Numbered from the stretch's first letter, positions 5,484-64,000 are shown. The stretch is 64,000 nucleotides of DNA from Escherichia coli (GCF_030013595.1 NZ_CP122768.1), one strand, 5' to 3'. Made by a program: numbers and translations. Notes: a model not told the origin generated them from the sequence alone.

Positions 5484-6030
5484 TATGTATTCCCTTGTGA
5501 TTATAATCTTCATGAATATATCAATAAGTGCTGTTATCCAAAAAAAAGCACATTTGGATACTATTCTATGAAGTTCATTTTATTTTAAAGATTACATGTA
5601 ACAAATGTATTTAAAAGATTTCAAAATGTTTCCAATCTGTTTAATATAATTCAGAATTATGAATTCTGAATATAAATATTCACGAATATTATGAATGCAT
5701 ATCAATATGTTATGAGTTGAGCGGAAACATAGGGAGTATCAATGATTGTTGTGCTAAACGGCTGGTGTGATCTCGCGCACATTAATGAAGGCATAAAAAA
5801 AGCCGGCATCATGCCGGCCCAAAAAATATAAACAAGACGATAAAAGGCTAATAACGGAAGCATCATGACACAGAATAATAAAAAGGGATAATTGTAATCA
5901 GTGCTAATATATTGATTGAATGAATTAATAAAGCCGATATCAAAGATAAATAAAATCGCTCAAAACGATTTTTCCTGTATTCACTGCCATTGCGCAAAAA
6001 TTATCTATTTGTTCAAAAAATGATTGAGTC

Positions 6031-6414
6031 TTGACTGGCTCATCCAATGTGGAAAAATGTGACTTTTATCACATAATAGTACTAAGTCTGAATTTTCCGG
6101 GTTATCTCAAAATGGAATACGGTTCGACAAAGATGGAAGAGAGACTCACTCGCAGCCCTGGTGGCAAATTGGCTTTGTGGGCTTTCTATACATGGTGTGG
6201 CTATTTTGTCTGGGCAATGGCGCGTTACATCTGGGTGATGAGCCGGATCCCCGATGCCCCCGTGTCGGGATTTGAAAGCGATTTAGGCTCTACCGCGGGA
6301 AAGTGGTTAGGGGCACTGGTTGGCTTTTTATTTATGGCTCTGGTCGGGGCATTGTTAGGCAGCATTGCCTGGTACACCCGACCTCGTCCCGCACGTAGCA
6401 GACGCTATGAATAA
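6031..6414 (+). CDS. yedR: small inner-membrane protein YedR (start uncertain: TTG 6031, GTG 6049 or ATG 6112)
   Basis: Two predicted TM helices, K-12 synteny between yedS and yedJ. Confidence 0.6.
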
Positions 6415-6452
6415 AAACTGCTAAGGTTGCGACCCTTGGCAACGGAGCGCGT

Positions 6453-7148
6453 ATGGACGTACAACACTGGCAGGTACAGTTCGAAAACTGGTTGAAAAAC
6501 CATCATCAGCACCAGGACGCGGCCCATGACGTGTGTCATTTTCGCCGCGTCTGGGCTACGGCACAGAAGCTGGCGGCAGATGACGATGTCGATATGCTGG
6601 TGATTTTAACCGCCTGTTATTTTCACGATATTGTGAGCCTGGCGAAAGATCATCCGCAACGGCAGCGTTCTTCAATCCTGGCGGCAGAAGAGACGCGTCG
6701 CCTGCTCCGTGAAGAGTTCGTGCAATTTCCGGCGGAGAAAATTGAGGCCGTTTGTCATGCCATTGCCGCGCACAGTTTCAGCGCGCAAATCGCCCCCTTA
6801 ACAACGGAAGCTAAAATCGTCCAGGATGCGGATCGGCTGGAAGCCCTGGGGGCGATTGGCCTGGCGCGCGTGTTTGCCGTTTCAGGGGCATTGGGCGTGG
6901 CGCTGTTTGATGGCGAAGATCCGTTCGCACAGCATCGCCCGCTGGATGATAAACGCTACGCGCTGGATCATTTCCAGACTAAGTTGCTGAAGCTACCGCA
7001 AACCATGCAAACCGCAAGAGGCAAGCAGCTGGCGCAGCACAACGCGCAATTTTTAGTCGAGTTTATGGCGAAGCTCAGTGCCGAACTGGCGGGGGAGAAT
7101 GAAGGTGTCGATCACAAGGTGATAGATGCGTTTTCACCCGCGGGCTGA
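6453..7148 (+). CDS. yedJ: HD-domain phosphohydrolase YedJ
   Basis: 231 aa with HD motif (CYFHDI); synteny upstream of dcm. Confidence 0.8.
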
Positions 7149-17663: not shown

Positions 17664-18031
17664 CAGGATCTCCCGCTACGCTTAAGCAAGTTTTTCATGA
17701 CCGACTGAAAATCGGTCTGCGGTATCTCTTCCGTTGGTGCTGAAGGGGGAAGTTTATGCAGCAGATTGATTTGCCCAGCGGTAACGCCGAGCACCAGCCG
17801 TGCATCTTCTACATCGACCACCACGACCCGTTCACGCGCGCCCAGCGAAGCACTGGCGCTAATTTTCAGACCGTTAACGCCAGTGCGTTTCGGGGCAAAT
17901 CCCAGCCGTTTTACCAACCAGGCAGCAGCGAGGATCAGGGCAATAATGGCGATGAGTGCGCCGCTCACCTGCAGCAGTGGCGCAGCAGAAACCGGCGCGG
18001 AAGATTGCACAGTAGCGTGGTTATTCATCAC
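17663..18031 (-). CDS. fliO: flagellar protein FliO
   Basis: 122 aa, single TM, position between fliN and fliP. Confidence 0.85.
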
Positions 18032-18444
18032 TAACGGCTCAGGCGACGCATCCGCTCAGACGGAGTAATGATATCGGTGATCCGCACGCCATATTTATCA
18101 GCGACTACGACAACTTCGCCCTGAGCAATTAAATAACCGTTGATCAGAATATCCAGCGGTTCGCCCGCCAGACCGTCCAGCGCCACGACGGACCCTTGCG
18201 TCAGACGCAACAGCTCTTTGATGGTCATCCGCGTACGGCCCAGCTCGACGGTCAGCTTGACCGGAATATCCATAATCAGGTCGATATCCTGCAACGTTCC
18301 GCTGACATCACCACCGCCAAATTGCTGGAACACCGCGTCGGCAGCGCTTTTGCTGCTGGTTGATTTTTGTTCGCTCAACGCTTCAGCCCACAGATCGTCC
18401 ATTGCGCCGTTGTTGTCATCGGCCGGATTATTCATGTCACTCAT
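18031..18444 (-). CDS. fliN: flagellar motor switch protein FliN
   Basis: 137 aa, SpoA domain. Confidence 0.9.
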   Translation of the reverse strand: MSDMNNPADDNNGAMDDLWAEALSEQKSTSSKSAADAVFQQFGGGDVSGTLQDIDLIMDIPVKLTVELGRTRMTIKELLRLTQGSVVALDGLAGEPLDILINGYLIAQGEVVVVADKYGVRITDIITPSERMRRLSR

Positions 18445-19445
18445 TTGGGCTGTTCCTCGTTCAGAGAATTTAAAATCGGGTTAATCAAATGTTCTATCCG
18501 TAACGCATACTGGCCGTTGAGAGTGCCGTACTGACTGGTCAGCACCGGGACGCCGTCAACATGGGCGATGATGCGATCGGGTTTTTCTATCGGCAGGACG
18601 TCGCCGGGTTTCAGTTTTAAAATCTGCGACAGGCGTAGCGAGATATCGGCAAAGTTGGCGACCAGCTCCAGCTGCGAATGCTGCACCTGGCGCACCAGGT
18701 TATCGCGCCAGTTCTGATCTTCATTACGCGAGTTTTCCAGCGGCGGGTTAACCAACAATTCCCGTAGCGGCTCGATCATGCTGAATGGCAGGCAGATATT
18801 AAATTCGCCTGTCAGGTTGCCAATCTCCACATGGAACGGCGTGTTAACCACGATGTCGTTCGGCGAGGTGGTGATATTGGTAAATTTCACCTGCATTTCC
18901 GAACGCACGTACTCAACTTCCAGCGGATTAATCGCCTTCCAGGCGTCGCTATAGCCTTCAAGCGCCAGCTTTAACATGCGGTTGATGACGCGCTGTTCGG
19001 TATGGGTAAACTCGCGACCTTCCACTTTGGTCGGGAAGCGTCCATCGCCGCCAAACAGGTTATCCACGGCGATAAACACCAGACTCGGTGAGAACACCAC
19101 CAGCCCTGTGCCGCGCAGCGGTTTCAGATGGATAAGGTTCAGGTTGGTCGGCACCGGCAGGTTGCGGGCAAATTCATGGTACGGCTGAATGCGGATGGCC
19201 CCGACGGTAATGTCCGGGCTACGGCGCAGCAGGTTGAACAGCCCCATACGAAAATGGCGGGCAAAGCGCTCATTAATGATTTCCAGCGCCTGCAAACGTT
19301 CGCGCACAACCCGTCGTTGGGTATTCGGATCGTACGGACGAATGTCACTTTCGCCGCTAACACTGGCTGTCGGTTCGTCTTTGACTTCGCTGTCACCATT
19401 CAACAGCGCATCAATTTCAGCTTGAGAAAGAATACTATCGCCCAT
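18441..19445 (-). CDS. fliM: flagellar motor switch protein FliM (start at MGDSILSQAEIDALL)
   Basis: 334 aa after trimming the 368-aa ORF; CheY-binding N-terminus. Confidence 0.9.
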   Translation of the reverse strand: MGDSILSQAEIDALLNGDSEVKDEPTASVSGESDIRPYDPNTQRRVVRERLQALEIINERFARHFRMGLFNLLRRSPDITVGAIRIQPYHEFARNLPVPTNLNLIHLKPLRGTGLVVFSPSLVFIAVDNLFGGDGRFPTKVEGREFTHTEQRVINRMLKLALEGYSDAWKAINPLEVEYVRSEMQVKFTNITTSPNDIVVNTPFHVEIGNLTGEFNICLPFSMIEPLRELLVNPPLENSRNEDQNWRDNLVRQVQHSQLELVANFADISLRLSQILKLKPGDVLPIEKPDRIIAHVDGVPVLTSQYGTLNGQYALRIEHLINPILNSLNEEQPK

Positions 19446-48992: not shown

Positions 48993-51214
48993 GCTGTTTG
49001 CTCCTGTGCTGCGGTGAGGGCGGTGAGGCGTTCGGTTTTGATTTCATTCAAACGGCGCAGGCGCGAACCAAGATAAGTTGAATACTCCTTATCACCTTTG
49101 GATTCTGCGGCCTTGCGGTGAACTTCTACTTCCCGCGCAATAAGGCCATAGACTTTATTAACTTCATTGGGGGTTACGGCTGCAGCCAGTGTTTTGGCAA
49201 CACCTGAGAGTCGTTCATCCAGTTCTTCACGCAGTCGGGTAGCATCCTCTGCTTTCTCGCTTGCCTTCTTAATACTGTATTCTGTATTCAGCTCGGCGGT
49301 GTAGGCACTATCGTTATGCATATCCATATAAACATCTGCCGCAAATCCCAGATGAGATAGTGCTTTGACGGTGGCATCAGTAAGAGACTTTTTGGAGGCC
49401 TCTTTTTCCATTACCAGTGCCCCTTTGTTATTTTTTGATATGTAATCCGTGTGGCCATATGACGGAATAAATCCTTTCACTCCGTTCCAGATGTACCAGA
49501 GATCTATCCGGATGGTGTGTACTGACAGGCAGAACAGGGAACCGTCAGCATCCCTGACAGGTTTTTGTCCAATAATTTTCCCTGTCTGATCCTGTATAGG
49601 TTCAAGTAATGGCACACCGCGATCCACTCGCTCCTCCTTGATTTCAACTCCCCAACCAATGCCTTCCATTCCCAGCACTTCAGTCGCACGCATCAAAATA
49701 TATTGTGCGCGTATGGAGTGCAGTCCTGCACCGTAATCATTATGTGTGACATACGCAGGATCGGTCCGCTGAACGCGATTCCAGATAGCCAAATTTGCTT
49801 TGCTCTGGTCATCATTCATTGCTGACAGATAATGCTCCATGCGAATTGATGCAGTTTTTTCCTCGGCATGGGGCGGCTCAACCAGCGCGTCAACGTTCTG
49901 CACCAGGTCTTTTACCTGCTCGCTAAGTTTTTCTTGTGGAGGAGTCTCTTCTGCCGGGGTAATAGCTGCAGGTTCCCTCTGTGATACGGCGTTATTTTCA
50001 GGTACGTCATACACATGGCGAGGCGTGACAAACTGCTCACGCAACTGCTGCAAACTACGTTCTCCAGCATTTGCTGCTTCGCTTTTTTCGCCCTGATTTG
50101 AGGGTGTTTCTGACATCATTCCATCAATTGAGAATCGCCCGCCGCCGTGGTTGGTGACTTTTACATCATCCTTTGGTGCTGTTTCCTTTGGCTTCTCTTC
50201 AACAGCATTTGCATCACGCTGCCCGTTAGCTTGCAGCCAGTTGTCGATGTGACTGCGCAGGGATTGCGGGAAGTGGTACGTGTCTTTTGCGGGGGCGCTC
50301 TGAATAACACCGAATACTGATGCGCGGTCATAGGCAAGGATCTGATCCGTTGTGCGCAAGGCCATTGACCAGCGTTTAAAATCCTCCCGATCCTGGCTGA
50401 TTATTTCGTCTGCCGCTTTCAGGACGCTGGGGGTGATTTTTTCCGGGCCAACGGGTAACAGGGCGCAGGCAATTTCACGATCCAGTGTGGCGTGAGTCTG
50501 TTGGTAAGGACGTGCGGATGCTGTTTCTGGTTTTACCTCCGGCAGCATTTCATCGCGTTTACCGGGATTCTCTACCCATTTTTTTATAAATTTGGAGATA
50601 GTCCAACTGGTCGGGTTTTGTTCCTGGGTATCGCAACTTGCCAAAATTGCATGTACCAGATTATTCAATCCAGCAATATGCATGTACTCGATGGGCTTAC
50701 ACGCCACCATGGCATCAAGAACGATGCGGTTAAACGCGTCAACCTCATCCTCACTGTCAGTATCACTGTTGTCGAGCATCTCCAGGTATTCACGCGTCTG
50801 CGCAAGCAATTCACTGTCGACTTCGTTGGCGTCGTGGCTGAACAGCAGGACGGCGGCGAAGCGTTCACGAGCCGGCAGTTTCATCAGGTCGTTAACCTGT
50901 GCGATATCTGCTGAACCGCTATCTGAATCAGCGGGGGTGTTAACTACCCATTTTTCGCCATCAAAACTGTGTTCTGTGGCAAACGTCTCATCAAACTCAC
51001 CGACGCCAGGGCGCGGTTGGCCCGGGGCATCTTCCCAGATTTTAGGTTTGAAATAGTTGTCGCCGTGGTCAGGGTAGGCTTCCCACAATTTGCCGATGAT
51101 GATGTTCTCGGCAACTTTTTTGTTAGGGGCGTCGATGGCGATGGCCAGCGCCGGGATCGCGCCGTTTTTGAGCGCGCCTTTTTTCGCTTCTAACAAGCCG
51201 TTAAAGATGGTCAT
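48989..51214 (-). CDS. large phage recombination-module protein: ~470-aa acidic N-terminal region fused to an ERF/Sak(Rad52-like) single-strand-annealing-like C-terminal domain
   Basis: C-terminal segment ...LFCLSVHTIRIDLWYIWNGVKGFIPSYGHTDYISKNNKGALVMEKEASKKSLTDATVKALSHLGFAADVY resembles ERF/Sak cores; operon partner is Gp157. Confidence 0.4.
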   Translation of the reverse strand: MTIFNGLLEAKKGALKNGAIPALAIAIDAPNKKVAENIIIGKLWEAYPDHGDNYFKPKIWEDAPGQPRPGVGEFDETFATEHSFDGEKWVVNTPADSDSGSADIAQVNDLMKLPARERFAAVLLFSHDANEVDSELLAQTREYLEMLDNSDTDSEDEVDAFNRIVLDAMVACKPIEYMHIAGLNNLVHAILASCDTQEQNPTSWTISKFIKKWVENPGKRDEMLPEVKPETASARPYQQTHATLDREIACALLPVGPEKITPSVLKAADEIISQDREDFKRWSMALRTTDQILAYDRASVFGVIQSAPAKDTYHFPQSLRSHIDNWLQANGQRDANAVEEKPKETAPKDDVKVTNHGGGRFSIDGMMSETPSNQGEKSEAANAGERSLQQLREQFVTPRHVYDVPENNAVSQREPAAITPAEETPPQEKLSEQVKDLVQNVDALVEPPHAEEKTASIRMEHYLSAMNDDQSKANLAIWNRVQRTDPAYVTHNDYGAGLHSIRAQYILMRATEVLGMEGIGWGVEIKEERVDRGVPLLEPIQDQTGKIIGQKPVRDADGSLFCLSVHTIRIDLWYIWNGVKGFIPSYGHTDYISKNNKGALVMEKEASKKSLTDATVKALSHLGFAADVYMDMHNDSAYTAELNTEYSIKKASEKAEDATRLREELDERLSGVAKTLAAAVTPNEVNKVYGLIAREVEVHRKAAESKGDKEYSTYLGSRLRRLNEIKTERLTALTAAQEQTA

Positions 51215-51244
51215 TGGTCTTTCCTCATTACAGGTCAGTGGTCT

Positions 51245-51565
51245 TTAGTAGGGGATTTCATCAGTATCTGGCGTGTATTCGATGCAAAGTAACTGCTGGA
51301 TTTTGTCATCGATAGCAGCAATACGCTGTTGGGCGTCGGCGACTGTTTTCTGTTTTTGCTCATACAGCTGCTCGACCTGCAAACCGATGATGTCGATTGG
51401 CTGGGGCTGGTTGACGGTAATTTCAATTTCGCGGCTTTCCAGAAGGATGTACCTGTCTGGAAAATTTTTTGACATATCAACAGTCGCAACAAGCAGCTTT
51501 TCGTGGCTGAAAGTTGAAGTTGCATAATTAATAAAGAGTGTTACTGGGATGGTGCGCGCTTCCAT
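51245..51565 (-). CDS. hypothetical phage protein
   Basis: 106-aa ORF with SD aaggag 7 nt upstream, first gene after the leader. Confidence 0.4.
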   Translation of the reverse strand: MEARTIPVTLFINYATSTFSHEKLLVATVDMSKNFPDRYILLESREIEITVNQPQPIDIIGLQVEQLYEQKQKTVADAQQRIAAIDDKIQQLLCIEYTPDTDEIPY

Positions 51566-52413
51566 AGCGACTCCTTGGTGATGTATACTCGGGACCGATC
51601 AGCGAATATTGATCAGCTTCCATAGCGTCAGTGTCGTTGGTCTTTCCTCATCACAAGTTTGGTCACTTGTGATAAATCCGAATGGTTTGGTCGCCGTTCG
51701 GGGTAACTGGCCCGCCTTGTGCGGGTCTTTTGCTATCTAAAGGGTGCCGGTTACGTTTCCGGCGTCGTTATGTTTCCATCACGACCGTACGGGGCTGGTC
51801 TTTCCTGTTTTGAGCTGGTCAGGCTCATGGTCAACGCTGGTCAGGCGTGGTACTTCCTCCGGTCTTTCCCTGGTGTCACGCTGCGGGTTTGGCCTCTCCT
51901 GTTGGGGACTCAGGCACAGCGATAAAACCTGGCTGTGTGAAAAAATGGCCCATCGTGCGGACTGGGCAAAGGCTAAACACAGCAAATTGATGATGGGCGC
52001 CCGGAATCGAACCGGGTAACGGGCAGGGAGTTCCCGTTAAACACCTGTTCACCACAACCGGGAGCGCACTCCGCCATTTCAAAATTTAACGACAAAGCTC
52101 AAAGTTGAGTCGATGAAGTGCGCTCTCGTGTTGTAGCCAGGACTCTTCCCTGGTGGTCACACCGTATCGCCTTGATGGTGAATCAATCGCTCATACCTGG
52201 CTGTGGCTTGCACATTCCGGCTAGCTGCTATGGAGACAACGCGTTAAGGCTCCGCTTCCATCCAGACCGCTTCGACACATGTGCCATATGCCGGCGAAGT
52301 CTTTCCCTCTGTCATCGTGTTGGCGCCGACGCGCAAAATTTGATGCCGTCTTTCCGGCTGTCAGAACGTGTTTCTGAACAACTGCCGCTGGGTAAGCGTT
52401 GTTGATGAAAGTG

Positions 52414-52442
52414 ACTTTACAATTTGTATTTGTAATGGTCAA
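52414..52442 (-). promoter_or_regulatory. candidate PL-like leftward promoter (minus strand TTGACC-17 nt-TAAAGT) overlapped by palindromic operator TACAATTTGTA (52418..52428)
   Basis: Hexamers and palindrome read on the minus strand about 120 bp beyond the 3' end of the repressor gene, facing the leader and recombination genes. Confidence 0.35.
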
Positions 52443-52561
52443 CGTATTTTTAAAAAATAATTTGTAGTTAGGGGCAAAAAAATATTCACTGTGTAAAGGT
52501 GTTTTTGTGTTAGGGGGAAAGTTGCATGCCAGCAGCGGCTGGCCTGGAAATTTGAACTGAA

Positions 52562-52990
52562 CTATTTTGTCTGGTTTTTGGCTTCAAGTAGTTCTTTTAG
52601 CAGTAGATCGAAGTGCTCTCTTTTTTCTTTTAGCTCATTGATTAATTTATTTTTTTCGCTCTCAGGCAGTCCTCTGAATAGTTGCAGTAGAGCCTGTTCT
52701 TGCGGGGTTAGTTCTTGATTGTAATTACCCGGGTGTAGCGTGGATTCATCCAAATATTCACCTTCATTCATGAAGAAAAAATGAACAGGGTATCCGGTCA
52801 CTTTTGCTAGCTTGTCTAATTTATCTTTTCTTGGAGTTACCCCATTACACCATGCCTGAACTGATTGAGCCGTAACCCCAATATGGCGAGCTAACTCAGA
52901 TTGAGACCAGCCTAAGTCTTTTAGAATCCGTTGTAGTCGGCTAGCAAAAGCCATGTTTTTCGTTTTTGTGTTCATACCGTAAGGATACAA
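52562..52990 (-). CDS. cI-like prophage repressor (XRE-family HTH, no S24 peptidase domain)
   Basis: HTH WSQSELARHIGVTAQSVQAWCNG; divergent from the cro-like gene. Confidence 0.7.
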   Translation of the reverse strand: MYPYGMNTKTKNMAFASRLQRILKDLGWSQSELARHIGVTAQSVQAWCNGVTPRKDKLDKLAKVTGYPVHFFFMNEGEYLDESTLHPGNYNQELTPQEQALLQLFRGLPESEKNKLINELKEKREHFDLLLKELLEAKNQTK

Positions 52991-53074
52991 GGTTTAATTG
53001 TAGGGAGCATTGCAAATATAATTTGTAATTACAGTTATGATTTGTAATGATGGCGCGGACACAAGGAGTCCATA
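52991..53074. promoter_or_regulatory. OR-like operator/promoter region between the divergent repressor and cro-like genes
   Basis: Perfect palindrome TGTAATTACA (53024..53033), near-palindrome CAAATATAATTTG, repeated ATTTGTAAT; SD aaggag for cro. Confidence 0.45.
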
Positions 53075-53304
53075 TGGATAAACAACTGCAAGACAAAATT
53101 CTTTCCGTAATGAGTCAATCCGAGTTAGGGCGGCGATTAGGGAAAAAACCACAAACGGTAAGCCTCTGGTTCAAAGGAAGGGTTCCCGGTGAAGAGGTTT
53201 TGCGCACATCTGAAGCTCTTGAATGGCGCGTGACCCCCCATGATCTTAGACCGGATCTTTACCCAAACCCAGATGACAGCTTGCCTAAAACGAAAGCAGC
53301 TTAA
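53075..53304 (+). CDS. Cro/YdaS-like HTH protein (start MDKQLQDKIL)
   Basis: HTH SQSELGRRLGKKPQTVSLWFKG; SD aaggag 5 nt upstream. Confidence 0.65.
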
Positions 53305-53362
53305 CTGTTGGTGAGCCCCAAATCTGATTAAGCGTAATCAATTTTTAGCGACAGGAGACGCT

Positions 53363-53839
53363 ATGGAAAACCAAGAGGAATTACAAAAAGAGATTTTGAC
53401 CTGGGCGGCAAGGGCAGGGCAGGAACTCGTCACGATTGAAATCTGCCGGGCCTGGTTCAGTCAGGGACGCAATGATGAGTTGAGACTACATGAATTTGAG
53501 GACGCGGACGGCAATGTGGACTGGAGAGCCATCAACAACAATCGGCAGAAAATCTTTCGCTGGTTACGTGGCGAGACAACGGCGGCGCGCCGAAAAACTC
53601 AGGTGCTGGCCAGTGTGATGAAAGCCGTGCTACCCGCAGAACGGCGGGCGCGTCTGGAGTCGCCGGGCGATCCCGTTTTGCTGGCAACGCTGGCGGCAAA
53701 AGAAGGGGTGGAAGCGATTAACGCTGTACATCTCCACTTCGCGCCAGAGATAACTATTCAGGAAATTGACGAAGCAATAGCGGCGCTGGTAGCGACGCGA
53801 GGGGCAGTGATAAGCACTGCGCAAGGCCATCATGCATGA
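53363..53839 (+). CDS. YdaT-family (CII-like) regulator
   Basis: KIFRWLRGETTAARRKTQVLASVMKAVLP resembles Rac YdaT IYHRWLKGETKTQREKIQKLIPAILAILP. Confidence 0.6.
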   Translation: MENQEELQKEILTWAARAGQELVTIEICRAWFSQGRNDELRLHEFEDADGNVDWRAINNNRQKIFRWLRGETTAARRKTQVLASVMKAVLPAERRARLESPGDPVLLATLAAKEGVEAINAVHLHFAPEITIQEIDEAIAALVATRGAVISTAQGHHA

Positions 53840-53878
53840 GCGCCTGACCAGCGTTTAACTTATACCGAGGAAAGACCG

Positions 53879-54103
53879 ATGTTAAGACATATTGACCGCA
53901 TTACCTGGCGTAACGGCTGGCACCTGAATGGACGCCCGGCACATGTTGCAGAGATCCAACCTATTTTTGATGGGCGTATGGCTGCCGCGCTTTCGGTGTG
54001 GGAGCAGTATGAATCCAGGAAGGTCGAGTTGCGCGACAAAGGGCTGAGCAATGCGGACTATGAAGCCGGTTGTCGTCAGATAGCCGAAGCTCTGGAGATC
54101 TGA
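53879..54103 (+). CDS. hypothetical phage protein
   Basis: 74-aa ORF; stop 2 nt before the O-like start. Confidence 0.4.
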   Translation: MLRHIDRITWRNGWHLNGRPAHVAEIQPIFDGRMAAALSVWEQYESRKVELRDKGLSNADYEAGCRQIAEALEI

Positions 54104-54105
54104 GT

Positions 54106-55182
54106 ATGAGTCGTTTGCTGATTAACGAAAACCCCCTTCAGGTCCTGCCCACGTTGGCATGCACTATAGGGTTGAATGAAGCCATCGTTCTACAGCAAAT
54201 CCACTACTGGCTGAATTCATCTCAAAATTTCTTCGAAAATCGCCACTGGGTGTACAACAGTGTGACCGATTGGCAAGAACAATTCCCGTTCTGGAGCGAG
54301 TCGACAATAAAACGCGTGCTGGCCAATCTGGAAAAATTGAATGTGGTATTTACTGGGAACTTTAACAGTGATGCCTGGGATAAAACCAAGTGGTATTCAA
54401 TCAATTATGCCCAGTTATGTAAGATTGAAGAGACAACATTCCCTGTGGCCAATCGATTAGGTCAAGTTGACCCAATCGAAGAGGTCAATGTGACCCAAGC
54501 ATCAGGTCAAGTTGACCCATGCGCTAAGGTCAAAATGACCCAATCTCTTACAGAGAATACAACAGAGAGTACTACAGAGAGTACTACAGAGATAAAAGAT
54601 CCCCCTTACCCCCAAAAGGGGGAGGGCGAGGAAATCATTCTCGCTGACGCTCAAAAAGCTCTGAACTACTACAACGAGAAAGTCGGTACACGCTGCCGCG
54701 ACGTTAAACCGTTTGTCATGCTGCTGACTGCCACCACCACCCGCGCTGGTTACAGCGTGGCTGAGATTCAGTTAGTAATTCGTTGGGTTATTGCGACATG
54801 GCGCCGTCGTAGCGGAAGCGTGCCGAAACCTGCGAACATTTGCCGCGTAAACCGGTTTGACGGATATCTGGCTGACGCTGAGGCGTGGGCCACTGCTGAG
54901 GCTGCCGTTGACCCTGCTGAAGTTGTGAAGGGCTACAACGAGATTCTGGGCGACCTGCTACCTATAGCTGAAATTGATACTGACCGCCGTCGGGCAATCC
55001 TGCGCCTGCTGGCACATATGCGCACGCAAACTCTTGGCGCATTTATCGGCTACTTCGAAAAATTCCGCGATAACGCCCCAGACTTCTATTTCGGCGGCGA
55101 ATATCGCACCGGCTGGCGGGCAGGGTTTGATTACCTGATGAAGCCAGAAACACTGCGTAAAACCAGGGAAGGGGCATTATGA
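54106..55182 (+). CDS. replication initiator, lambda O-like (replisome-organiser N-terminal domain, Thr/Glu-rich linker, C-terminal domain)
   Basis: Contains internal ori iterons; followed and overlapped by a DnaB-type helicase gene. Confidence 0.65.
   Translation: MSRLLINENPLQVLPTLACTIGLNEAIVLQQIHYWLNSSQNFFENRHWVYNSVTDWQEQFPFWSESTIKRVLANLEKLNVVFTGNFNSDAWDKTKWYSINYAQLCKIEETTFPVANRLGQVDPIEEVNVTQASGQVDPCAKVKMTQSLTENTTESTTESTTEIKDPPYPQKGEGEEIILADAQKALNYYNEKVGTRCRDVKPFVMLLTATTTRAGYSVAEIQLVIRWVIATWRRRSGSVPKPANICRVNRFDGYLADAEAWATAEAAVDPAEVVKGYNEILGDLLPIAEIDTDRRRAILRLLAHMRTQTLGAFIGYFEKFRDNAPDFYFGGEYRTGWRAGFDYLMKPETLRKTREGAL
54460..54542. repeat. origin iterons: 4 x GGTCAA-NN-TGACCCA (15 bp, each an inverted repeat) at 22-23 bp spacing inside the O-like gene
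   Basis: Copies at 54460, 54483, 54505, 54528; followed by an AT-richer segment with 2 x ACAGAGAGTACT tandem repeats (54558..54595). Confidence 0.65.
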
Positions 55183-56570
55183 ATCCAGAAGAACTGGAAG
55201 CGATCGTTCTCGCTGGTCTGATTAACGGTGGCGCGACGCCTGACGCGTTTGATGTGATTGCCACTACTCCGGAGGAAGCCTTCAGCATCGTGTTTCACCG
55301 TCGCGCTTTCAGCGAAATCAAAAAGCAGGCACTGGCGAACGGCATGATCGACATGTTGTTTATCAGCGAAGCGCTGGGCGGTTCCAGCCTTGCGGATCTG
55401 TCTCAAATATCCCGGATCCCGGCAACGGTACCGAATCTGAAAGGCTATGCCGGGAAAATGGTGCGGGCATGGCGGAGCCGCAAAATGGCGGCATTGTTGC
55501 AATCTGGCGCGGATGGTATCCGTAACGCTGTAAACCAGAGTCAGCGTGATGAGGTTATTGAATCTCATGTTGCTCAGGTGCTGGATATGAGCGCCGCTAC
55601 CGGCACAGTCCAGCCGGTACACATCAAAGAGCTGTTACCGCTCTACATTGACACCGTTGATAAACGGATGTCTGGCGACGCGCAGGAAATGATGCTGAAA
55701 ACCGGAGTCGAGGATCTGGATGTCGCCCTGGGCGGTATCAACATGACCGACCTTGTTGTGGTTGCCGGTCGTCCAGGCATGGGGAAAACGGAATTTACCC
55801 TGAAGATTATCGATGGCGTTACCGCAGATGGCGGCGGCGCACTGTTTTTCAGCATGGAAATGGGCGCTCAGCAGATTGTTGAACGTACCGTTGCCGGGGC
55901 TGGGAATATGTCCACGTCGCGTCTGCGTAATCCAAAAGAAATGGACGATGAGGATTTGACCAGATTAACCGCCGCGCTTGCAATCATGCAGGATCGCGAT
56001 ATCTGGATTGTTGATGCCACTGATTTGACGATTGAGCAGATCCGCGCCATTGCAGAGACTCATAAACGCCGTTATCCGCACCTGAAGTTGATTGGTGTTG
56101 ATTACATGGGCCTGATCAAAAAACCGAAGGCCGAGCGCCACGATCTCGCTGTCGGGCATATCTCCCGCAACATGAAGACTATGGCCATGCGTCTGCATAC
56201 CCCTGTTTTTGCTCTTAGCCAGCTTTCCCGCCAGGTGGATTCTCGACCTGCTGGCCAGCGTCGCCCGGTGATGTCGGACCTGCGCGATTCCGGCAGTGTT
56301 GAGCAGGACGCTGACAGCATTTTGTTTTTGTACCGCGATGAAGTTTACACACCTGATTCACCTGCAAAGGGTATCGCCGAGGTGATTATCGGTAAAAACC
56401 GTTCTGGCGGGGCAGGTGAAATTATTTATCAGGAATTCCGGAATGGGCATTTCCTGCCAATTGATCAACACGTAGCACGCGAAAAATTACGCATCCAGAA
56501 GGAGGCAGAGCAACCGAGAAAACGTGAAAAACGGTATTCAAACAAAAACTTTAATACGGACCCATTTTAA
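55179..56570 (+). CDS. phage replicative DNA helicase (DnaB family)
   Basis: 463 aa, Walker A GRPGMGKT, DnaB C-terminal motifs. Confidence 0.8.
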   Translation: MNPEELEAIVLAGLINGGATPDAFDVIATTPEEAFSIVFHRRAFSEIKKQALANGMIDMLFISEALGGSSLADLSQISRIPATVPNLKGYAGKMVRAWRSRKMAALLQSGADGIRNAVNQSQRDEVIESHVAQVLDMSAATGTVQPVHIKELLPLYIDTVDKRMSGDAQEMMLKTGVEDLDVALGGINMTDLVVVAGRPGMGKTEFTLKIIDGVTADGGGALFFSMEMGAQQIVERTVAGAGNMSTSRLRNPKEMDDEDLTRLTAALAIMQDRDIWIVDATDLTIEQIRAIAETHKRRYPHLKLIGVDYMGLIKKPKAERHDLAVGHISRNMKTMAMRLHTPVFALSQLSRQVDSRPAGQRRPVMSDLRDSGSVEQDADSILFLYRDEVYTPDSPAKGIAEVIIGKNRSGGAGEIIYQEFRNGHFLPIDQHVAREKLRIQKEAEQPRKREKRYSNKNFNTDPF

Positions 56571-56608
56571 CCACGCATGACCAGCGTGAAATAACCGAGG
56601 AAAGACCA

Positions 56609-57019
56609 ATGACCACCATTTCAGGCAAATTAGAGTACCCGTCGGACAAAGGACACATAGACGACGGTAAAAACTATCTCGACGTCATTTTGTGGAATAT
56701 GAACGCCGGGCCACGTGCGCGCACTCGTGCGGTTTTTGTACCAAGACCCAAAGCAGGCAATTTTTCAACACCAGCTCAGCCTGCCCGTCAGGCATCCGTA
56801 GCCGCAGCGCCAGCAGTGAAATGTAAGGGTAAAACGCACATCGGGATCGCGATTCGCAGAAATGGTGAGCGGCAAGTGAAACTCCACGAAACAGCGACAA
56901 CCTGGTGTGCTTCACCGCATGAAACTTACGACAAGATAACCGGGCAGCGCATTGGTGCGCCTGGTCGCTGTCGCCTGCTGTTGAGCTCCATCACTCCGAT
57001 AGAAAAGAAAGGGGCGTGA
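56609..57019 (+). CDS. hypothetical phage protein
   Basis: 136-aa ORF with SD gaggaaag. Confidence 0.4.
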   Translation: MTTISGKLEYPSDKGHIDDGKNYLDVILWNMNAGPRARTRAVFVPRPKAGNFSTPAQPARQASVAAAPAVKCKGKTHIGIAIRRNGERQVKLHETATTWCASPHETYDKITGQRIGAPGRCRLLLSSITPIEKKGA

Positions 57020-57020
57020 T

Positions 57021-57257
57021 ATGACCGGGCAATCAGATTACCTGCCGCCCGGCTTACCACACAACCGCGCCAAATGGCCCCAGGAATACCAGCTTAAAGA
57101 GCACTACGACATGCGAGCGGCGGCGCTGATCCGCCAACTCTTTGAGAAACGTATTCCGAGGGGAAGCGTGATTGAGCAAATCGGAATGACGCCGGATACA
57201 TACCGGGAATTTTTCAGAGAGCGTCTGAACTACTGGAGAGGGGTGATGGAACAATGA
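57021..57257 (+). CDS. hypothetical phage protein
   Basis: 78-aa ORF tightly packed in the operon. Confidence 0.35.
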   Translation: MTGQSDYLPPGLPHNRAKWPQEYQLKEHYDMRAAALIRQLFEKRIPRGSVIEQIGMTPDTYREFFRERLNYWRGVMEQ

Positions 57258-57565
57258 AATACAAACGGTGGGTGCGTGCGGAAGTCGTAATCATCAAACA
57301 ATGTGCAGGCAGCATGACAGTTGAACGTATAGGGCAGCTTATTGGCAGAACCGGTGCAGCGGTACGCACAAAAGCGCGCGAGCTGAAAATCTGTATGTAT
57401 CTGCGGGGTAATTATCATCAGTCAGCGAAATACTGCCAGGAGGATATCGAGCTGGCAAGGGAATTACATCAGTCGGGTATTAATCGCCAGGATATCGCGG
57501 AAAAACTCGAAATGCCGATCGGAGCGGTGAATCAGTTTGTTTATTTTGAGCGGAGGATTTCATGA
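57254..57565 (+). CDS. hypothetical phage protein, possible HTH
   Basis: 103 aa, overlapping start/stop with neighbours. Confidence 0.4.
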   Translation: MKYKRWVRAEVVIIKQCAGSMTVERIGQLIGRTGAAVRTKARELKICMYLRGNYHQSAKYCQEDIELARELHQSGINRQDIAEKLEMPIGAVNQFVYFERRIS

Positions 57566-57786
57566 AAGAACTTTTTCTGGCATTTGTGCCCCGGTTTATT
57601 AATGACCAGATCGCACTGACTAATAATGGTGAACAATATGAAATTGCCTGCAGCATGGTGGATGTGAATCCTGGCGAACGGTATGACGCGATGTGTGACC
57701 TGAAAATATTTACCTGGCTGGGTTGGGCTATTCCGTGTGGAGAACCAACCAATATTCGCCCATTTGAGAGCAGGGAGGCTGTATGA
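57562..57786 (+). CDS. hypothetical phage protein
   Basis: 74-aa ORF, ATGA overlap. Confidence 0.3.
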   Translation: MKELFLAFVPRFINDQIALTNNGEQYEIACSMVDVNPGERYDAMCDLKIFTWLGWAIPCGEPTNIRPFESREAV

Positions 57787-57949
57787 GTGAATTGAAAATA
57801 CGAATGAACCCAAGTCGCAAGGCGATCAAATTTGCGCAGTGTGTCTTGCAGATGGCTGAAGGTGAATGTTATATAAAAGAGTGTCATGGATAACAAGGCA
57901 CTCACTATCAATGATTATCTGTTAAAAAAGCAATCGACAAGGAGTTGAA

Positions 57950-58207
57950 ATGCAGACTCAATTAAAGGTTAAAGGCGGTTATAGTCATTTTTTCTTCGCC
58001 AATATTGAAGTCTCACAAAGAGAGTCAAATGGCGGTTTGGTTGTCGTTAGGGATGTTAATATACCTATTACAACAACAACTCTCTCTCTGTTAGAGAATT
58101 ACGCTGTAGGGCAGGTGTTGACGTTAGAACAAAAGAATGGCGATTTTTTTGATGTGTATTACGTTGGAACTGATGGGAATAACTTTCAGTTTTCAACGCA
58201 CTGCTAA
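57950..58207 (+). CDS. hypothetical phage protein; its 3' end and downstream hairpin are duplicated at 63186..63420
   Basis: 85 aa with SD aaggag; followed by hairpin ggccctg-tgagc-agggcc. Confidence 0.4.
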   Translation: MQTQLKVKGGYSHFFFANIEVSQRESNGGLVVVRDVNIPITTTTLSLLENYAVGQVLTLEQKNGDFFDVYYVGTDGNNFQFSTHC

Positions 58208-58355
58208 TTTATCAAGGCCCTGTGAGCAGGGCCTTCGAAAGCCTACTAAAGTCTGTTTCATAGAGAGAGTTATTTGCGATTAAAAAGGTATTTGGTCACG
58301 ACCAGCACGATAGAGAATACATCTTTCAAAGTACCGCCCATATAAAACAGTTACA
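58118..58355 (+). repeat. direct repeat copy A (~235 bp, roughly 80-85% identical to 63186..63420) bracketing the cargo segment
   Basis: Shared blocks ttgacgttagaacaaaa...atttttttg.gatgt.tattacgttgga..tgatggga...ctaaagtctgtttcatagagagagtta.ttgcg.ttaaaaaggtatttggtcacgacca.cacga. Confidence 0.6.
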
Positions 58356-58479
58356 TATGCACTTGATGACTAAGCTGGCACCAGGTTAACACCATGCGCC
58401 AGCTTGAAGGAGACTTCAGTTATTGGTTTCTGAGGAAAGCGATTCTTGAAAGGGTCATTTGCGTCTGGCAGTCGACCAT

Positions 58480-58527
58480 TTTCTTGACTTCAGCATCTGT
58501 TCCTTTCTTGACTTCAGCATCTGTTCC
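58480..58527. repeat. perfect 24-bp tandem duplication (tttcttgacttcagcatctgttcc x2), encoding GTDAEVKK x2 in the lipoprotein
   Basis: Read directly from the sequence. Confidence 0.8.
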
Positions 58528-58649
58528 CTGCATTGAAACTTTACCGCACATAGCATCCTTAGTTTTGATCCACTGGCGCTGAGAAGGCAGCAACTTGAAC
58601 CGCCCCGGAAATCCTGGAGACTAAACTCCCTGAGAAAGAGGTAAACAGG

Positions 58650-58976
58650 ATGACTAAAAATACTCGTTTTTCCCCCGAAGTCCGTCAGCGGGCGATTCGT
58701 ATGGTTCTGGAAAGTCAGGATGAATATGACTCACAGTGGGCGGCAATTTGTTCCATTGCCCCAAAGATTGGCTGTACGCCGGAGACTCTGCGTGTCTGGG
58801 TTCGCCAGCATGAGCGGGATACCGGGGGCGGTGATGGTGGGCTCACCAGCGCTGAACGTCAGCGTCTGAAAGAGCTGGAACGTGAAAATCGTGAACTGCG
58901 CCGCAGTAACGATATCCTTCGCCAGGCTTCCGCTTATTTTGCGAAGGCGGAGTTCGACCGCCTCTGGAAAAAATGA
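58650..58976 (+). CDS. IS629 OrfA (HTH transposase accessory)
   Basis: 108 aa, leucine-zipper/HTH typical of IS3 OrfA. Confidence 0.85.
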
Positions 58977-59863
58977 TGCCACTGCTGGATAAGCTGCGTG
59001 AGCAGTACGGGGTCGGACCGGTATGTAGCGAACTGCATATTGCCCCGTCAACGTATTACCATTGTCAGCAACAGCGACATCATCCGGATAAACGCAGTGC
59101 CCGTGCGCAGCACGATGACTGGCTGAAGAAAGAGATACAGCGCGTATACGATGAAAATCACCAGGTATACGGTGTGCGTAAAGTCTGGCGTCAGTTGTTA
59201 CGGGAAGGTATCAGAGTGGCCAGATGCACTGTGGCACGTCTCATGGCAGTTATGGGACTTGCCGGTGTTCTCCGGGGTAAAAAGGTCCGCACTACCGTCA
59301 GCCGGAAAGCCGTTGCCGCAGGCGACCGCGTAAACCGTCAGTTCGTGGCAGAACGACCTGACCAGCTGTGGGTGGCTGATTTTACTTACGTCAGCACATG
59401 GCAGGGCTTCGTCTATGTGGCGTTTATCATTGATGTGTTTGCCGGATACATCGTGGGGTGGCGGGTCTCATCGTCTATGGAAACGACATTCGTGCTGGAT
59501 GCGCTGGAGCAGGCGTTGTGGGCCCGTCGTCCGTCTGGCACCATCCATCACAGCGATAAAGGCTCTCAGTATGTGTCACTGGCCTATACGGAGCGACTAA
59601 AAGAAGCCGGATTACTGGCATCAACAGGGAGTACAGGCGACTCGTATGACAACGCGATGGCTGAGAGCATCAATGGTCTTTACAAAGCGGAGGTAATACA
59701 CCGTAAGAGCTGGAAAAAACGTGCAGAAGTGGAACTGGCCACACTAACGTGGGTGGACTGGTATAACAATCGACGATTGCTGGGAAGGCTGGGCCATACT
59801 CCTCCGGCAGAAGCAGAAAAAGCTTATTATGCTTCCATCGGAAACGATGATCTGGCAGCCTGA
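58973..59863 (+). CDS. IS629 OrfB transposase (DDE; expressed by -1 frameshift with OrfA in IS3 family)
   Basis: 296 aa with DDE residues and rve integrase core. Confidence 0.85.
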
Positions 59864-60939
59864 GTTCACAGATAAAACACTCTCCAGGAAACCCGGGGCG
59901 GTTCAACTCTTTTTTCTTCGCCGGGGTTAACTTGCTCCAGACGGTATTCAAATCAGAGTCAGCATTTGCAAATGCCATTCGGGACTGATCAAGGCTTTCA
60001 GATTTTTGCGGCTGAAGTTGTGCCTGCCTCTCTTTTTGCTTCTCCGCCTCATACCTGGCCTGTTCCTGTGCCCTGAGTTGCACCTGTTGTTCCGCTTCAA
60101 TTTGACTCTGTTGGGCATCCTTAGCCTGCTGGATTTTCTGCTGCTCAACGATCGGGTTGATAATGGAAAGCGATGTCAGTAAAGCGGCGCCCACTGATAT
60201 CGGATTATCAGAAGAGGTTTTTACAAAAACGTTTTTCTGATCGTCGGTCGCCTGCACGGTGTAGGTGATACGCCTTGAAAAGGCGTTTGCGTTGTTCTCC
60301 AAAAACAGATTTTCCATTTGCTTATCGAGATTACGATTAAAATTCTTTCTGTAAGCATCTGAAAGCTGGACGTACTCGTTCGCAGGTAGAGTCATCGTCA
60401 CGGTCCCTTCACAAGTTTTCATTGTGCTGCCCGTGTCACTTGATGTTGTGGAGATTTCAGAGACGGCTAGTTTGATCTTGTCCAGTGTGCTTCGTTTGGT
60501 CTGATTAGTGACATCAGGGTATTTATCGACCTGTTCAGAGAGTCCTTCATAAGCAGATTTTTTTAATAAATCCATGAGAGCTGATTGGGTCATTTCCGAA
60601 GAACAACCGATCTCATCTTTTTTGTTATCACAGCCTGTAAGGGCAATGGCGAGTAAGAGTACTGAGTATTTTAATCTCATGAATTCCCTTTAGAGTAAGG
60701 ATTGGTTTTTAAGACGCGGTCTGTAATCAGTTCCGAGAGCTACAGTAAACAACGCTGAGCACTGAACGCATCACAGGCAAGGTAAAAGGTGATATCGGCA
60801 AAGGCTGTGAAACCTTTAATTCAACAGATGGGAACGGTATGCACAGGATCCTGTAACGACGCTCCCAAAACTGGAAACCTGTAAGGCATGTTTTCGCTGC
60901 TGAACTTAATATACGAACCTGCACTATCATGAACATATT

Positions 60940-61436
60940 TTATATCGTTATACCCCGAGTGATTGTGCCCGGCAATGGATAGTGTCCTGGAGGAATTATT
61001 TCTAATGTAAAAGGAAGATATTTAATTTCGATGTGGGATTATTACCTGTCTATAAGAACAATGACTTTATCTGGCAGTAAGCAGACATCTATTAGCTTAC
61101 TGAAGGGGGGCTGTGATTTGACCATTAACGGCATGAGATATATTGTCTATTGGTGATTGTTCTGAGGCCGATATCACGTTAACGACCAAGTAAAATAACA
61201 TGAAAAATTATTTATTAATGATTGCCAGCATTAAATGTAGTGATACCTCATTAGCAGGGTGCTCCGCAATGACTGCGATGAACTAAAAAATCAGTCATAA
61301 CCATGAAAAAAACAAGTGTATCAGCGAAATTAAATCTGGTGAAAGCATTTAATTACTTGTTAATGACGCAATAAAAACATACTATGGAAATGTAACAGCT
61401 AATCTACAGTTCTTGTCAATAGGGGCGCACAAGAAA
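60940..61436. promoter_or_regulatory. ~500-bp AT-rich non-coding spacer carrying divergent promoters for the lipoprotein gene and the NTase/DUF262 cassette
   Basis: No ORF of 60 aa or more; strongly AT-rich. Confidence 0.35.
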
Positions 61437-62027
61437 ATGTTAAATGAATTTAAGGAAAAGCTACTATCCGACGATATCCGCGATGTCTACCAACGATACC
61501 TTTTAGGACATGACATCTGGTATTTTCGGGAACAAAAAAAATCAATAACCTTTGCTAAAGATTATGATGAGTTTAAGCTATATATGTCTAAGAAGCTTGA
61601 AATTCATGTAAATAATATTGCAATTGTTGGAAGTGCTAAGATGGGATTCAGCTTGAGCCCTGATAAAAATTATCGAACATTTAACGATGAGTCAGATATA
61701 GACTTGGTTTTAGTATCCGACAGAATTTATAAATCTTCCTGGATGGCATTTATTGAATTACAATCAAAGAATTATTTGCCTGTATATGCTCCTGTAGCTA
61801 AAAATATTTTCAAAGGATTCGTGTCATTGAAGGAGTTAGATATTAGAGTCGATTTTTTTAATAAATGGTCCCGTAACGTTGAACCATTAAAAAAAGACAT
61901 TCAAACTATTTTTGGAATACCTAACGACATCAACTACAGAATTTATGACTCTTGGGAGTCCGTTGAACGCTATCACATAGCTGGGTTGAATAGTCTAAAA
62001 GATAAGTTACAAGGACAATTGATATGA
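61437..62027 (+). CDS. minimal nucleotidyltransferase-fold protein (Pol-beta superfamily; MNT/SMODS-like), 196 aa from ATG 61437 (ORF track begins at TTG 61413)
   Basis: Motif IAIVGSAKMGFSLSPDKNYRTFNDESDIDLVLV = hhhhGS...SDhDhhhh; low-GC gene. Confidence 0.55.
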   Translation: MLNEFKEKLLSDDIRDVYQRYLLGHDIWYFREQKKSITFAKDYDEFKLYMSKKLEIHVNNIAIVGSAKMGFSLSPDKNYRTFNDESDIDLVLVSDRIYKSSWMAFIELQSKNYLPVYAPVAKNIFKGFVSLKELDIRVDFFNKWSRNVEPLKKDIQTIFGIPNDINYRIYDSWESVERYHIAGLNSLKDKLQGQLI

Positions 62028-63082
62028 GAGCTATTGATCTAATTAAAGTTGAATCGAAAGACATTAAATGGTTGACGGATAATTTGAAATCAGGTGTTAT
62101 TACAGTTGATAATTCATATCAGAGAAAATATATCTGGCAGCAAAAAGACCAAGTGGCCTTAATTGAGACAATATTAATTGGCTACCCAATCCCTGAGATT
62201 TACCTTTGGGCAAATAATACTGATCCTGACACTGGAGATACTAAATATTCAATTGTAGATGGACAGCAAAGGCTAACCACAATCCAGCGATATTTAAATG
62301 ATGAGTTTAAGTTAAGCAAAGCAGCTATAGATGATAAAGAAGCCGACTATAGTGGGAAAATTTTTTCAGAATTGTCGGCAGATAACAAACGTGATTTTTG
62401 GCGATACCAATTCTCATCCAGATTTATTAATGAATCATTGAGATATGATGAGATTGCAAAGTTATTTTTACGTCTAAATAGAACAAATACTACGTTAAAT
62501 CCTCAAGAACTTCGTAATGCTGAATTTAATGGCGAGTTTTTAAGATTAGCCGAAGAAATTGCACAAAATGAATTTTGGGATAATTATAAGATATTTACTC
62601 AGTCAGATATCCGTCGGATGCAAGACATTCAATTCATCAGCACATTATTGATTTTCTTACGAATGGGTATTGAGCAGGATAATACACAAAAATCAATTAA
62701 TCGAGTGTATGATCAATACAATGAGAATTACCCTGAGGCGACTGAGGACAGAATTATCTTTAACGAAGTGTTAAGGATCATATCTCAAATTATCAACAAT
62801 AAACAAGTATTAGAATCAGTTGTAAAGAAAAAAGGCCATTTGTATTTTATATTTGTGCTGGCATACTATTATTTACAGCTTAGTAAATCTAAGCTTGTTG
62901 ATATGAATGTTATTAGTTCAAAGCTCGAGGATTTTTTTAATATTTATGAGTTAAATGAACAAGATAACCCCCATCCACTGGTTGAGGAATATAGATTCCT
63001 CAGCCAAGAGGGTTCAAAGAAGAGTCATAACAGACAGCGTAGATTTGATATTTTGAAAGAATTTTGCTCTTTACATGATTAA
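62024..63082 (+). CDS. DUF262 (ParB/Srx-like, GmrS/SspE/DndB-type N-terminal domain) protein with an uncharacterised ~120-aa C-terminal region
   Basis: Hallmark motif YSIVDGQQRLTTIQRYL; ATGA start/stop overlap with the NTase-fold gene. Confidence 0.7.
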   Translation: MRAIDLIKVESKDIKWLTDNLKSGVITVDNSYQRKYIWQQKDQVALIETILIGYPIPEIYLWANNTDPDTGDTKYSIVDGQQRLTTIQRYLNDEFKLSKAAIDDKEADYSGKIFSELSADNKRDFWRYQFSSRFINESLRYDEIAKLFLRLNRTNTTLNPQELRNAEFNGEFLRLAEEIAQNEFWDNYKIFTQSDIRRMQDIQFISTLLIFLRMGIEQDNTQKSINRVYDQYNENYPEATEDRIIFNEVLRIISQIINNKQVLESVVKKKGHLYFIFVLAYYYLQLSKSKLVDMNVISSKLEDFFNIYELNEQDNPHPLVEEYRFLSQEGSKKSHNRQRRFDILKEFCSLHD

Positions 63083-63185
63083 ATGACGAAAGTGGGTTGT
63101 TTATAAGAATTGAATAAACAACCCATCATTTTAATGTACTCTGAATCCTCTCATTCTTAGTGAAATATTGTTTTTAGAACACGTA

Positions 63186-63420
63186 TTGACGTTAGAACAA
63201 AAAATAGATTTTTTTGTGATGTATTACGTTGGAGTTGATGGGATAATTATATGTTTTCAATACATTGTTAATTTATCAAGACCCTGCGACTAAGGTGTTC
63301 GAAAATCGACTAAAGTCTGTTTCATAGAGAGAGTTACTTGCGTTTAAAAAGGTATTTGGTCACGACCAACACGAGGCCGAATACCTCAGTTTAAGTACCG
63401 CTCATGTACAACAGTAACGT
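63186..63420 (+). repeat. direct repeat copy B (degenerate copy of the 3' end of the 57950 gene plus downstream region)
   Basis: See copy A. Confidence 0.6.
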
Positions 63421-63603
63421 TTGCTGATAGTGTCGCATTATCTTGCAGAGGACGCAGGTTAAATAGAACAAGCATATGTACCTGGTTTTTGTAATATTGG
63501 GTATAACATATGCTTTATAGGAGCGCGCTCAATGACCAACCGAGAAAGAATCTCCTGACAGATACAGTTATTTTCACCCTCTCCATAACATAAGGGAGTT
63601 TTT

Positions 63604-64000
63604 ATGTCGGAAGTGAGTATCGTAGAAGACGCCCCACGCCCAGTAGTCGCCGAATTGGCAGATCTGTTACAAGCACAACCATTTCATCAGAATCAATATG
63701 ATAACTTATGTCGCTTTATGATTTATTTTTCCCTGGCTGAATCAAAGTTAACATCAATGGCTGCTGGCCTTGGTAGAACTGACGCACTGGCACAGGAACT
63801 GGTTGTGCATAACGGCATGGACAGTCAGACCATAGATGATTGCTATCGTTATTTTATACGACGCTATCGAGACAGCCCTGATAGCGATTACCGCTTCAAT
63901 AAACTGGCCCCGCCTGAGTATGTTAAGAATGCAATCAGAGAACGCTTTGTTACGCTACTTCAGATACAGTCTCCAACAATTGAAGATAAAATCAGCTTTG
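63604..64000 (+). CDS. phage protein, 5' partial view (ORF runs off the window end)
   Basis: ATG at 63604 preceded by aagggag SD; open to 64000. Confidence 0.4.
   Translation, partial: MSEVSIVEDAPRPVVAELADLLQAQPFHQNQYDNLCRFMIYFSLAESKLTSMAAGLGRTDALAQELVVHNGMDSQTIDDCYRYFIRRYRDSPDSDYRFNKLAPPEYVKNAIRERFVTLLQIQSPTIEDKISF

Follow-up and report, generated by a model that had tools for sequence, protein, structure and literature searches.

The 64,000-nucleotide stretch of Escherichia coli DNA analysed here (GCF_030013595.1, NZ_CP122768.1; the whole stretch is referred to as the window) contains a complete IS629 element (58596–59905, plus strand, 1310 bp), an IS1203 isoform of the IS3 family. By transposition, a single copy of this element has almost certainly entered the coding sequence of a minus-strand gene that is carried by a prophage and encodes an LprI/DUF1311 lipoprotein. 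The element had been named, and placed at these coordinates, in an original prediction made from the sequence alone; its length, its ends, the transposase genes on its plus strand and its 99.9% identity to copies annotated as IS1203/IS629 bear this out, and nothing was found that contradicts the insertion itself.

The ends of the element were compared with each other and with uninterrupted sites. The left terminal inverted repeat (58596–58620, plus strand) starts TGAACCGCCCCGG and the right terminal inverted repeat (59881–59905, plus strand) ends CCGGGGCGGTTCA; 13 of 13 positions are identical between the former and the reverse complement of the latter, and 22 of 25 when the comparison is extended. 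The triplet ACT lies directly outside both ends (58593–58595 on the left and 59906–59908 on the right). It is a real 3 bp target-site duplication, as had been predicted, because the uninterrupted site carries a single ACT (…GGCAGCA ACT CTTTTTT…) in two complete genomes and one draft contig. For E. coli HCP5S3_I2 (NZ_CM149870.1), where the left flank extends to 2154621 and the right flank begins at 2154619, the two abut with a 3 bp overlap; this junction lies inside an intact 948 nt coding sequence annotated as 'lysozyme inhibitor LprI family protein' (WP_112024906.1). An IS-free contig of GCA_053639475.1 matched window positions 59904–64000 without any difference and positions 49847–58595 with zero substitutions and one 12 bp indel far from the site, where it has only one ACT. 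This indel (54581–54592, GTACTACAGAGA) is present in the window and absent from the contig, is the only difference over 8.7 kb and is located in a prophage replication-region gene of unknown function.

The disrupted gene was reconstructed by deletion of the element and one ACT. Joining 60680–59906 to 58592–58420 yields 948 nt in frame (315 codons plus the stop codon), and the product ends …QWIKTKDAMCGKV…VKKMVDCQTQMTLSRIAFLRNQ, the C-terminus that the prediction had quoted. The 5′ part (59906–60680, minus strand) comprises codons 1–258 and the first base of codon 259 and shares 99.6–100% identity with intact genes that bear the annotation 'lysozyme inhibitor LprI family protein'. The orphaned 3′ part (58420–58595, minus strand) encodes most of the LprI domain, including the invariant Cys274 and Cys300, and carries the stop codon. 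The reconstruction is free of frame error and has intact homologues: the 315-residue protein is an exact member of the public protein collection, in which it is encoded on IS-free contigs. Intact alleles occupy the same position in the same prophage in other E. coli, the EFB2392121.1 type being identical to the restored sequence and WP_112024906.1 differing from it by one residue (E29D), whereas the gene in the window is split by IS629.

The open reading frame now present (59670–60680, minus strand) starts MRLKYSVLLLAIALTGC, carries the predicted LTGC lipobox and continues into IS629. It encodes a truncated fusion of 336 residues, of which 259 are native and 77 are read from the antisense strand of the right end of the element. 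Codon 259 is broken after its first base, and Leu259 is kept because the end of the element supplies TG. The Pfam LprI match of the restored protein is gone from the fusion, as are Cys274 and Cys300, which lie downstream of the break. The loss of the LprI domain and of two invariant cysteines makes it a sound deduction that the insertion is inactivating. An ORF scan of the window found no co-oriented gene downstream of the disrupted gene on the minus strand and a polar effect is therefore not expected.

The probable fate of the truncated protein was judged by analogy with ScwA (SL1344_0490) of Salmonella Typhimurium, a comparison that was used for this purpose only. ScwA is of similar size and likewise has a C-terminal Pfam LprI domain without an MliC domain, and its four conserved cysteines are placed as in the window protein, one pair lying near the N-terminus and the other within the LprI domain; it differs in being a soluble periplasmic protein of 275 residues, whereas the window protein is a lipoprotein. 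The cysteines of ScwA form two N-to-C disulfide bridges that are needed for stability and function (PMC7933661). If the same holds for the lipoprotein, the truncated form should be unstable or inactive. No Salmonella protein was among the 113 and 127 matches returned by a single-sequence search and a profile search with the lipoprotein, and ScwA was not compared directly.

It could instead be argued that the gene has been remodelled rather than killed, the truncated lipoprotein being stable and its N-terminal activity kept or changed. The whole of the N-terminal domain (residues 29–155) and of the long helix that follows it (160–221) precedes the break, and both are confidently modelled. Homologues with an IS911-like insertion or, in Citrobacter and Pantoea, with an A6-to-A5 frameshift (described below) are independently truncated at the same place. 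This outcome is nevertheless considered unlikely, given that an unrelated tail of 77 residues usually destabilises a periplasmic protein, that Cys26, Cys90, Cys274 and Cys300 are all invariant and that both N-to-C disulfide bridges of the ScwA type would be lost by analogy (PMC7933661).

Other lesions were observed close to the insertion site in homologous genes. In E. coli CP088658.1 an IS911-like element of the IS3 family (1250 bp, with a TTG duplication) (4778–6027 of its locus) interrupts the homologous gene at a position equivalent to window 59904–59906, only 2 bp away from the IS629 target; the remaining product has 259 residues; several short-read assemblies carry the same IS911-like insertion and several contigs break at that point. 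One base upstream of the IS629 target triplet there is an A6 run (59910–59915, minus strand; T6 on the plus strand), which is a slippage site in homologues: the run is A6 in intact alleles and A5 in frameshifted Citrobacter freundii variants (four short-read assemblies), and a Pantoea variant has the same frameshifted tail. Three independent kinds of lesion (IS629, IS911-like and A6-to-A5) thus fall within ∼10 bp, just before the cysteine-bearing LprI part, in a small sample. That the 10 bp around codons 256–259 (GAAGAAAAAAGAGTTG) are a site of recurrent lesions, acting as a crude on/off or domain-removal switch, is a doubtful proposition; if true, it could reflect either selection for loss of the C-terminal domain or a preference, common to IS3-family elements, for the A-tract junction as a target. 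The cluster is regarded as a small curiosity, and population data would be needed to make more of it.

The age of the insertion was considered next to the distribution of intact sites. When the restored junction was used as a 400 bp query, 451 complete E. coli genomes matched; 440 of these have the site uninterrupted, and the IS629 insertion of the window was seen in none of the 451. An exact look-up of the 336-residue fusion product in public assemblies gave no match. On these comparisons the event is a simple insertion with a 3 bp duplication; it is a derived state, not the ancestral one, and is young when set against the divergence of the prophage, because empty sites exist, the flanks are identical to those of an IS-free allele, nearly all matching genomes are intact at the junction and the fusion product is unrecorded. 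The recency that had been proposed agrees with the zero substitutions in the flanks and with the absence of the insertion from every other assembly searched. The recent date, the non-functionality of the truncated protein and the movement by the transposition mechanism known for the family are all inferred. Some observations weigh against a recent and inactivating event. The sequence still encodes the N-terminal 259 residues (the signal peptide, the α+β domain and the long helix), which could be partly active; the loss of function is deduced for a protein whose intact form is uncharacterised; and the element carries a private substitution in OrfB (N249K, see below), so that recency is only relative, the copy or its donor having had time to mutate.

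Alternatively, the insertion could be old and ancestral, with the empty sites of relatives produced by precise excision through the IS-excision enhancer (IEE); for IS629/IS1203v, precise excision that depends on the transposase and repairs the target gene has been documented (bioRxiv 10.1101/2023.06.07.543989). Such a history is very improbable here: intact homologues are present in Citrobacter, Enterobacter, Pantoea, Yersinia and Proteus as well as in ∼440 complete E. coli genomes, the junction of the window was found in no other assembly searched, its flanks are identical to the IS-free allele and a single gain is a far more parsimonious explanation than repeated precise loss. Least probable of all is an assembly artefact in which the repeat was misplaced while collapsed reads of a multi-copy element were resolved; IS629 is multi-copy in many E. 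coli and short-read assemblies do break at such repeats (four contigs end at the border of the element), but a perfect 3 bp duplication of the empty-site triplet with junctions at the exact termini of the element is the signature of transposition and not of mis-joining.

Transposition of IS629 into the lipoprotein gene would have proceeded as is known for the family, in which the element moves by a copy-out/paste-in mechanism through a circular intermediate, with an OrfAB transposase produced by −1 programmed frameshifting. Integration at ACT (AGT in the orientation of the gene, codons 258/259) duplicated the 3 bp and split the gene. The 5′ part keeps the start codon, the lipoprotein signal peptide and the N-terminal domain, enters the element and ends after 77 foreign residues. 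The 3′ part, which encodes two of the invariant cysteines and the greater part of the LprI domain, has lost its translation start.

The element has the gene organization expected for this mechanism. The first gene, orfA (58650–58976, plus strand), encodes the helix–turn–helix part of the transposase (108 residues; Pfam HTH_Tnp_1, E = 2.4e-12), and its exact product is found on at least 1000 contigs of the public collection. The second gene, orfB (58973–59863, plus strand), lies in the −1 frame relative to orfA and encodes the DDE catalytic part (296 residues; Pfam rve, E = 8.5e-28), with further Pfam matches to HTH_21 and rve_3 and a score of 315.9 bits against the NCBIfam model transpos_IS3 (cut-off 160). 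A slippery A6 run in the overlap of the two genes (58968–58973, plus strand) provides a site for a −1 frameshift, and a −1 shift simulated at this position yielded an open OrfAB frame of 404 residues. An ALIL frameshift-stimulating pseudoknot of the IS3-family type (58931–59047, plus strand) was matched over its full length (Rfam RF01497, 119.2 bits, E = 8.6e-32, against a gathering score of 50), and the closest copies of the element carry the annotation 'programmed frameshift'.

The identity of the element was examined with the element as a nucleotide query, which gave IS629 matches in 4252 of 5426 complete E. coli genomes. The best copies, at 99.9% identity, bear the annotation 'IS3-like element IS1203 family transposase', and a plasmid copy, also 99.9% identical, is annotated 'Transposase for insertion sequence element IS629'. 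Copies in E. coli O157:H7 are 98.9–99.0% identical and occur at at least ∼40 places per genome, and a Shigella flexneri plasmid copy is 96.3% identical; the window itself contains only the one copy. The usual criterion for an isoform in insertion-sequence nomenclature is at least 95% nucleotide identity to named copies, and the window element lies above it at 99.9% and 98.9–99.0%. Every testable defining feature of IS629/IS1203 was found in it: the length, ends, open reading frames, frameshift signals, identity and duplication. IS1203 and IS3411 are treated as IS629 isoforms, with sub-types that are 4–5% apart (PMC3271280). Judged by its identity to the annotated copies and by this published scheme, IS629 is the correct name and the copy is of the IS1203-like sub-type; it is ∼95–96% identical to other IS629 sub-types, which matches the published divergence.

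The window copy shares with IS629, IS1203 and IS1203v of Shigella sonnei, E. coli O111 and O157:H7 the length of 1310 bp, the terminal repeats, the layout of orfA and orfB, the A6 frameshift site, the ALIL pseudoknot, the 3 bp duplication and the preference for prophage targets. It differs from IS629/IS1203 in its insertion site, which was found in no other searched assembly, and in the base A at 59719. The closest copies have C at this position; the change is the sole difference from these relatives and converts Asn249 of OrfB to lysine (N249K). An OrfB with Lys249 is absent from a collection of ∼15 billion proteins in which the Asn249 form is present. Judged by eye, the substitution falls outside the D, D and E residues, and the reading frames of the element are open.

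In kind the event is real but ordinary and already known, such insertions being seen by the hundred in E. coli; all that is new here is the particular insertion site and the private N249K substitution. IS629 target duplications are 3–4 bp with no sequence-specific target, and 62% of the IS629 copies of O157 are located in prophages or prophage-like elements (PMC3271280). The event in the window matches this published behaviour in its 3 bp duplication, its prophage target and its strain-specific location. IS629 insertions in prophages are a well documented source of strain variation in E. coli, and this one has little import beyond strain typing, for which it offers a clean strain-specific marker, absent from every other searched assembly, that could serve in IS-based lineage typing. 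It is also a natural mutant of an uncharacterised LprI/DUF1311 prophage lipoprotein from a widespread family, which can be compared with a near-isogenic intact allele.

The likeness of the lipoprotein to LprI/DUF1311 proteins that had been noted in the prediction rests on a Pfam match (PF07007) to residues 230–312 of the restored protein (34.9 bits, E = 2.1e-8, against a gathering cut-off of 22 bits). Its further description as of lysozyme-inhibitor type holds for the name only, and the LprI domain itself is not known to act against lysozyme. An MliC domain (PF09864) was not detected in the restored protein, for which the Pfam scan returned LprI and a sub-threshold FliP match only. LprI of Mycobacterium tuberculosis (Rv1541c), a lysozyme inhibitor, is also a lipoprotein with a Pfam LprI (DUF1311) domain, but has an additional MliC domain that was shown to be sufficient for lysozyme resistance, whereas Salmonella ScwA, which has the LprI domain only, leaves lysozyme sensitivity unaffected and raises the levels of the lytic transglycosylase MltD (PMC7933661). 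As far as domain content can tell, 'lysozyme inhibitor' is therefore a domain label and not a function for the window protein, because it has no detected MliC domain and ScwA gives no lysozyme protection.

By direct reading of the sequence, the restored protein starts with a lipoprotein signal peptide, MRLKYSVLLLAIA-LTGC, which conforms to the lipobox pattern [LVI][ASTVI][GAS]C. An alignment of 26 homologues showed the lipid-attachment site Cys17 to be invariant together with Cys26, Cys90, Cys274 and Cys300. Aspartate at position +2 suggests retention in the inner membrane under Lol sorting, which would apply to this lipoprotein. An AlphaFold model of the restored protein (mean pLDDT 83.2) consists of a confidently modelled α+β domain (residues 29–155), a 60-residue helix rich in Gln and Glu (160–221) and a helical C-terminal domain (230–313). 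A Foldseek search of the PDB with this model gave nothing below E = 0.18; the weak matches to the N-terminal domain were mostly to NTF2-like folds and are taken as a lead and not as a result. A sequence search of the PDB gave nothing below E = 0.35. PADLOC returned no match for the lipoprotein and it shows no sign of being a known defence protein. Full-length homologues are found in Citrobacter, Enterobacter, Yersinia, Pantoea, Erwinia, Proteus, Morganella and Mannheimia.

The 3′ fragment contains a perfect 24 bp tandem duplication (58480–58527; Tandem Repeats Finder, period 24, 2.0 copies, 100% matches) through which GTDAEVKK is repeated between the two invariant cysteines of the C-terminal LprI domain. 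The duplication is found in the 315-residue allele, including those of HCP5S3_I2 and GCA_053639475.1, and absent from 25 other aligned sequences; most homologues, including the aligned E. coli members, have 307 residues and lack it. A recombination breakpoint at the element had been considered, many genomes being only 89% identical to the 3′ fragment, and was rejected, as this drop is mostly the 24 bp duplication counted as a gap.

The prediction had assigned the gene to a prophage, and its surroundings agree with this. Positions 1 to ∼46,700 of the window are E. coli backbone (fli genes, tcy, sdiA, uvrY, uvrC, pgsA and the Gly-Cys-Leu tRNA genes), and a lambdoid prophage begins at ∼46,780 with an integrase gene that adjoins tRNA-Leu. 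This is followed by genes for an exonuclease, repressor-type regulators and a DnaB-like helicase, then by the LprI gene on the opposite strand and a two-gene DUF262 module; beyond the window, the Q antiterminator, holins and a CHAP lysin follow. The LprI gene thus has the replication module on one side and the Q/lysis module on the other, and is transcribed against the neighbouring phage genes. Its product matches phrog_5094 (E = 3e-181, function unknown), and a tblastn search of 50,697 GenBank phage records with the restored protein gave no match; the phage status of the gene was assigned from the prophage context and the PHROG match only. The chromosome of Citrobacter freundii commonly carries an 85% identical homologue (6001–6942 of its locus), flanked by a TonB-receptor/FecCD iron ABC cluster on one side and an MFS transporter gene on the other. 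Because this homologue is chromosomal and the E. coli gene lies inside a prophage, the latter looks like prophage cargo (a moron).

Beside the lipoprotein gene, positions 61413–63082 encode a 204-residue protein of unknown function followed by a 352-residue DUF262/GmrSD_N protein (62024–63082) that matches the PADLOC model NsnA (E = 4e-41). This module is probably prophage-borne anti-phage defence cargo.

The prophage of HCP5S3_I2, which is otherwise 99.9% identical, contains two further IS3-family insertions that are absent from the window (4630–5939 and 17899–19227 of its locus, equivalent to window ∼49914–49918 and 63178–63184), one of which is an IS629 of another sub-type, 95.2% identical to the window copy. 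An ISVsa5 element is also present in yecU, upstream in the HCP5S3_I2 chromosome. The IS content of these near-identical regions therefore differs at four sites, which points to fast IS turnover there.

Within the lipoprotein gene, positions 60063–60094 are identical to a 32 nt spacer in a type I-E CRISPR array of E. coli strain 1943 (NZ_CP023359.1; 401–433 of its locus). The adjoining CTT corresponds to the canonical AAG protospacer-adjacent motif (PAM) on the other strand, and the same match, over 33 nt, occurs in an annotated CRISPR of NZ_CM170158.1.

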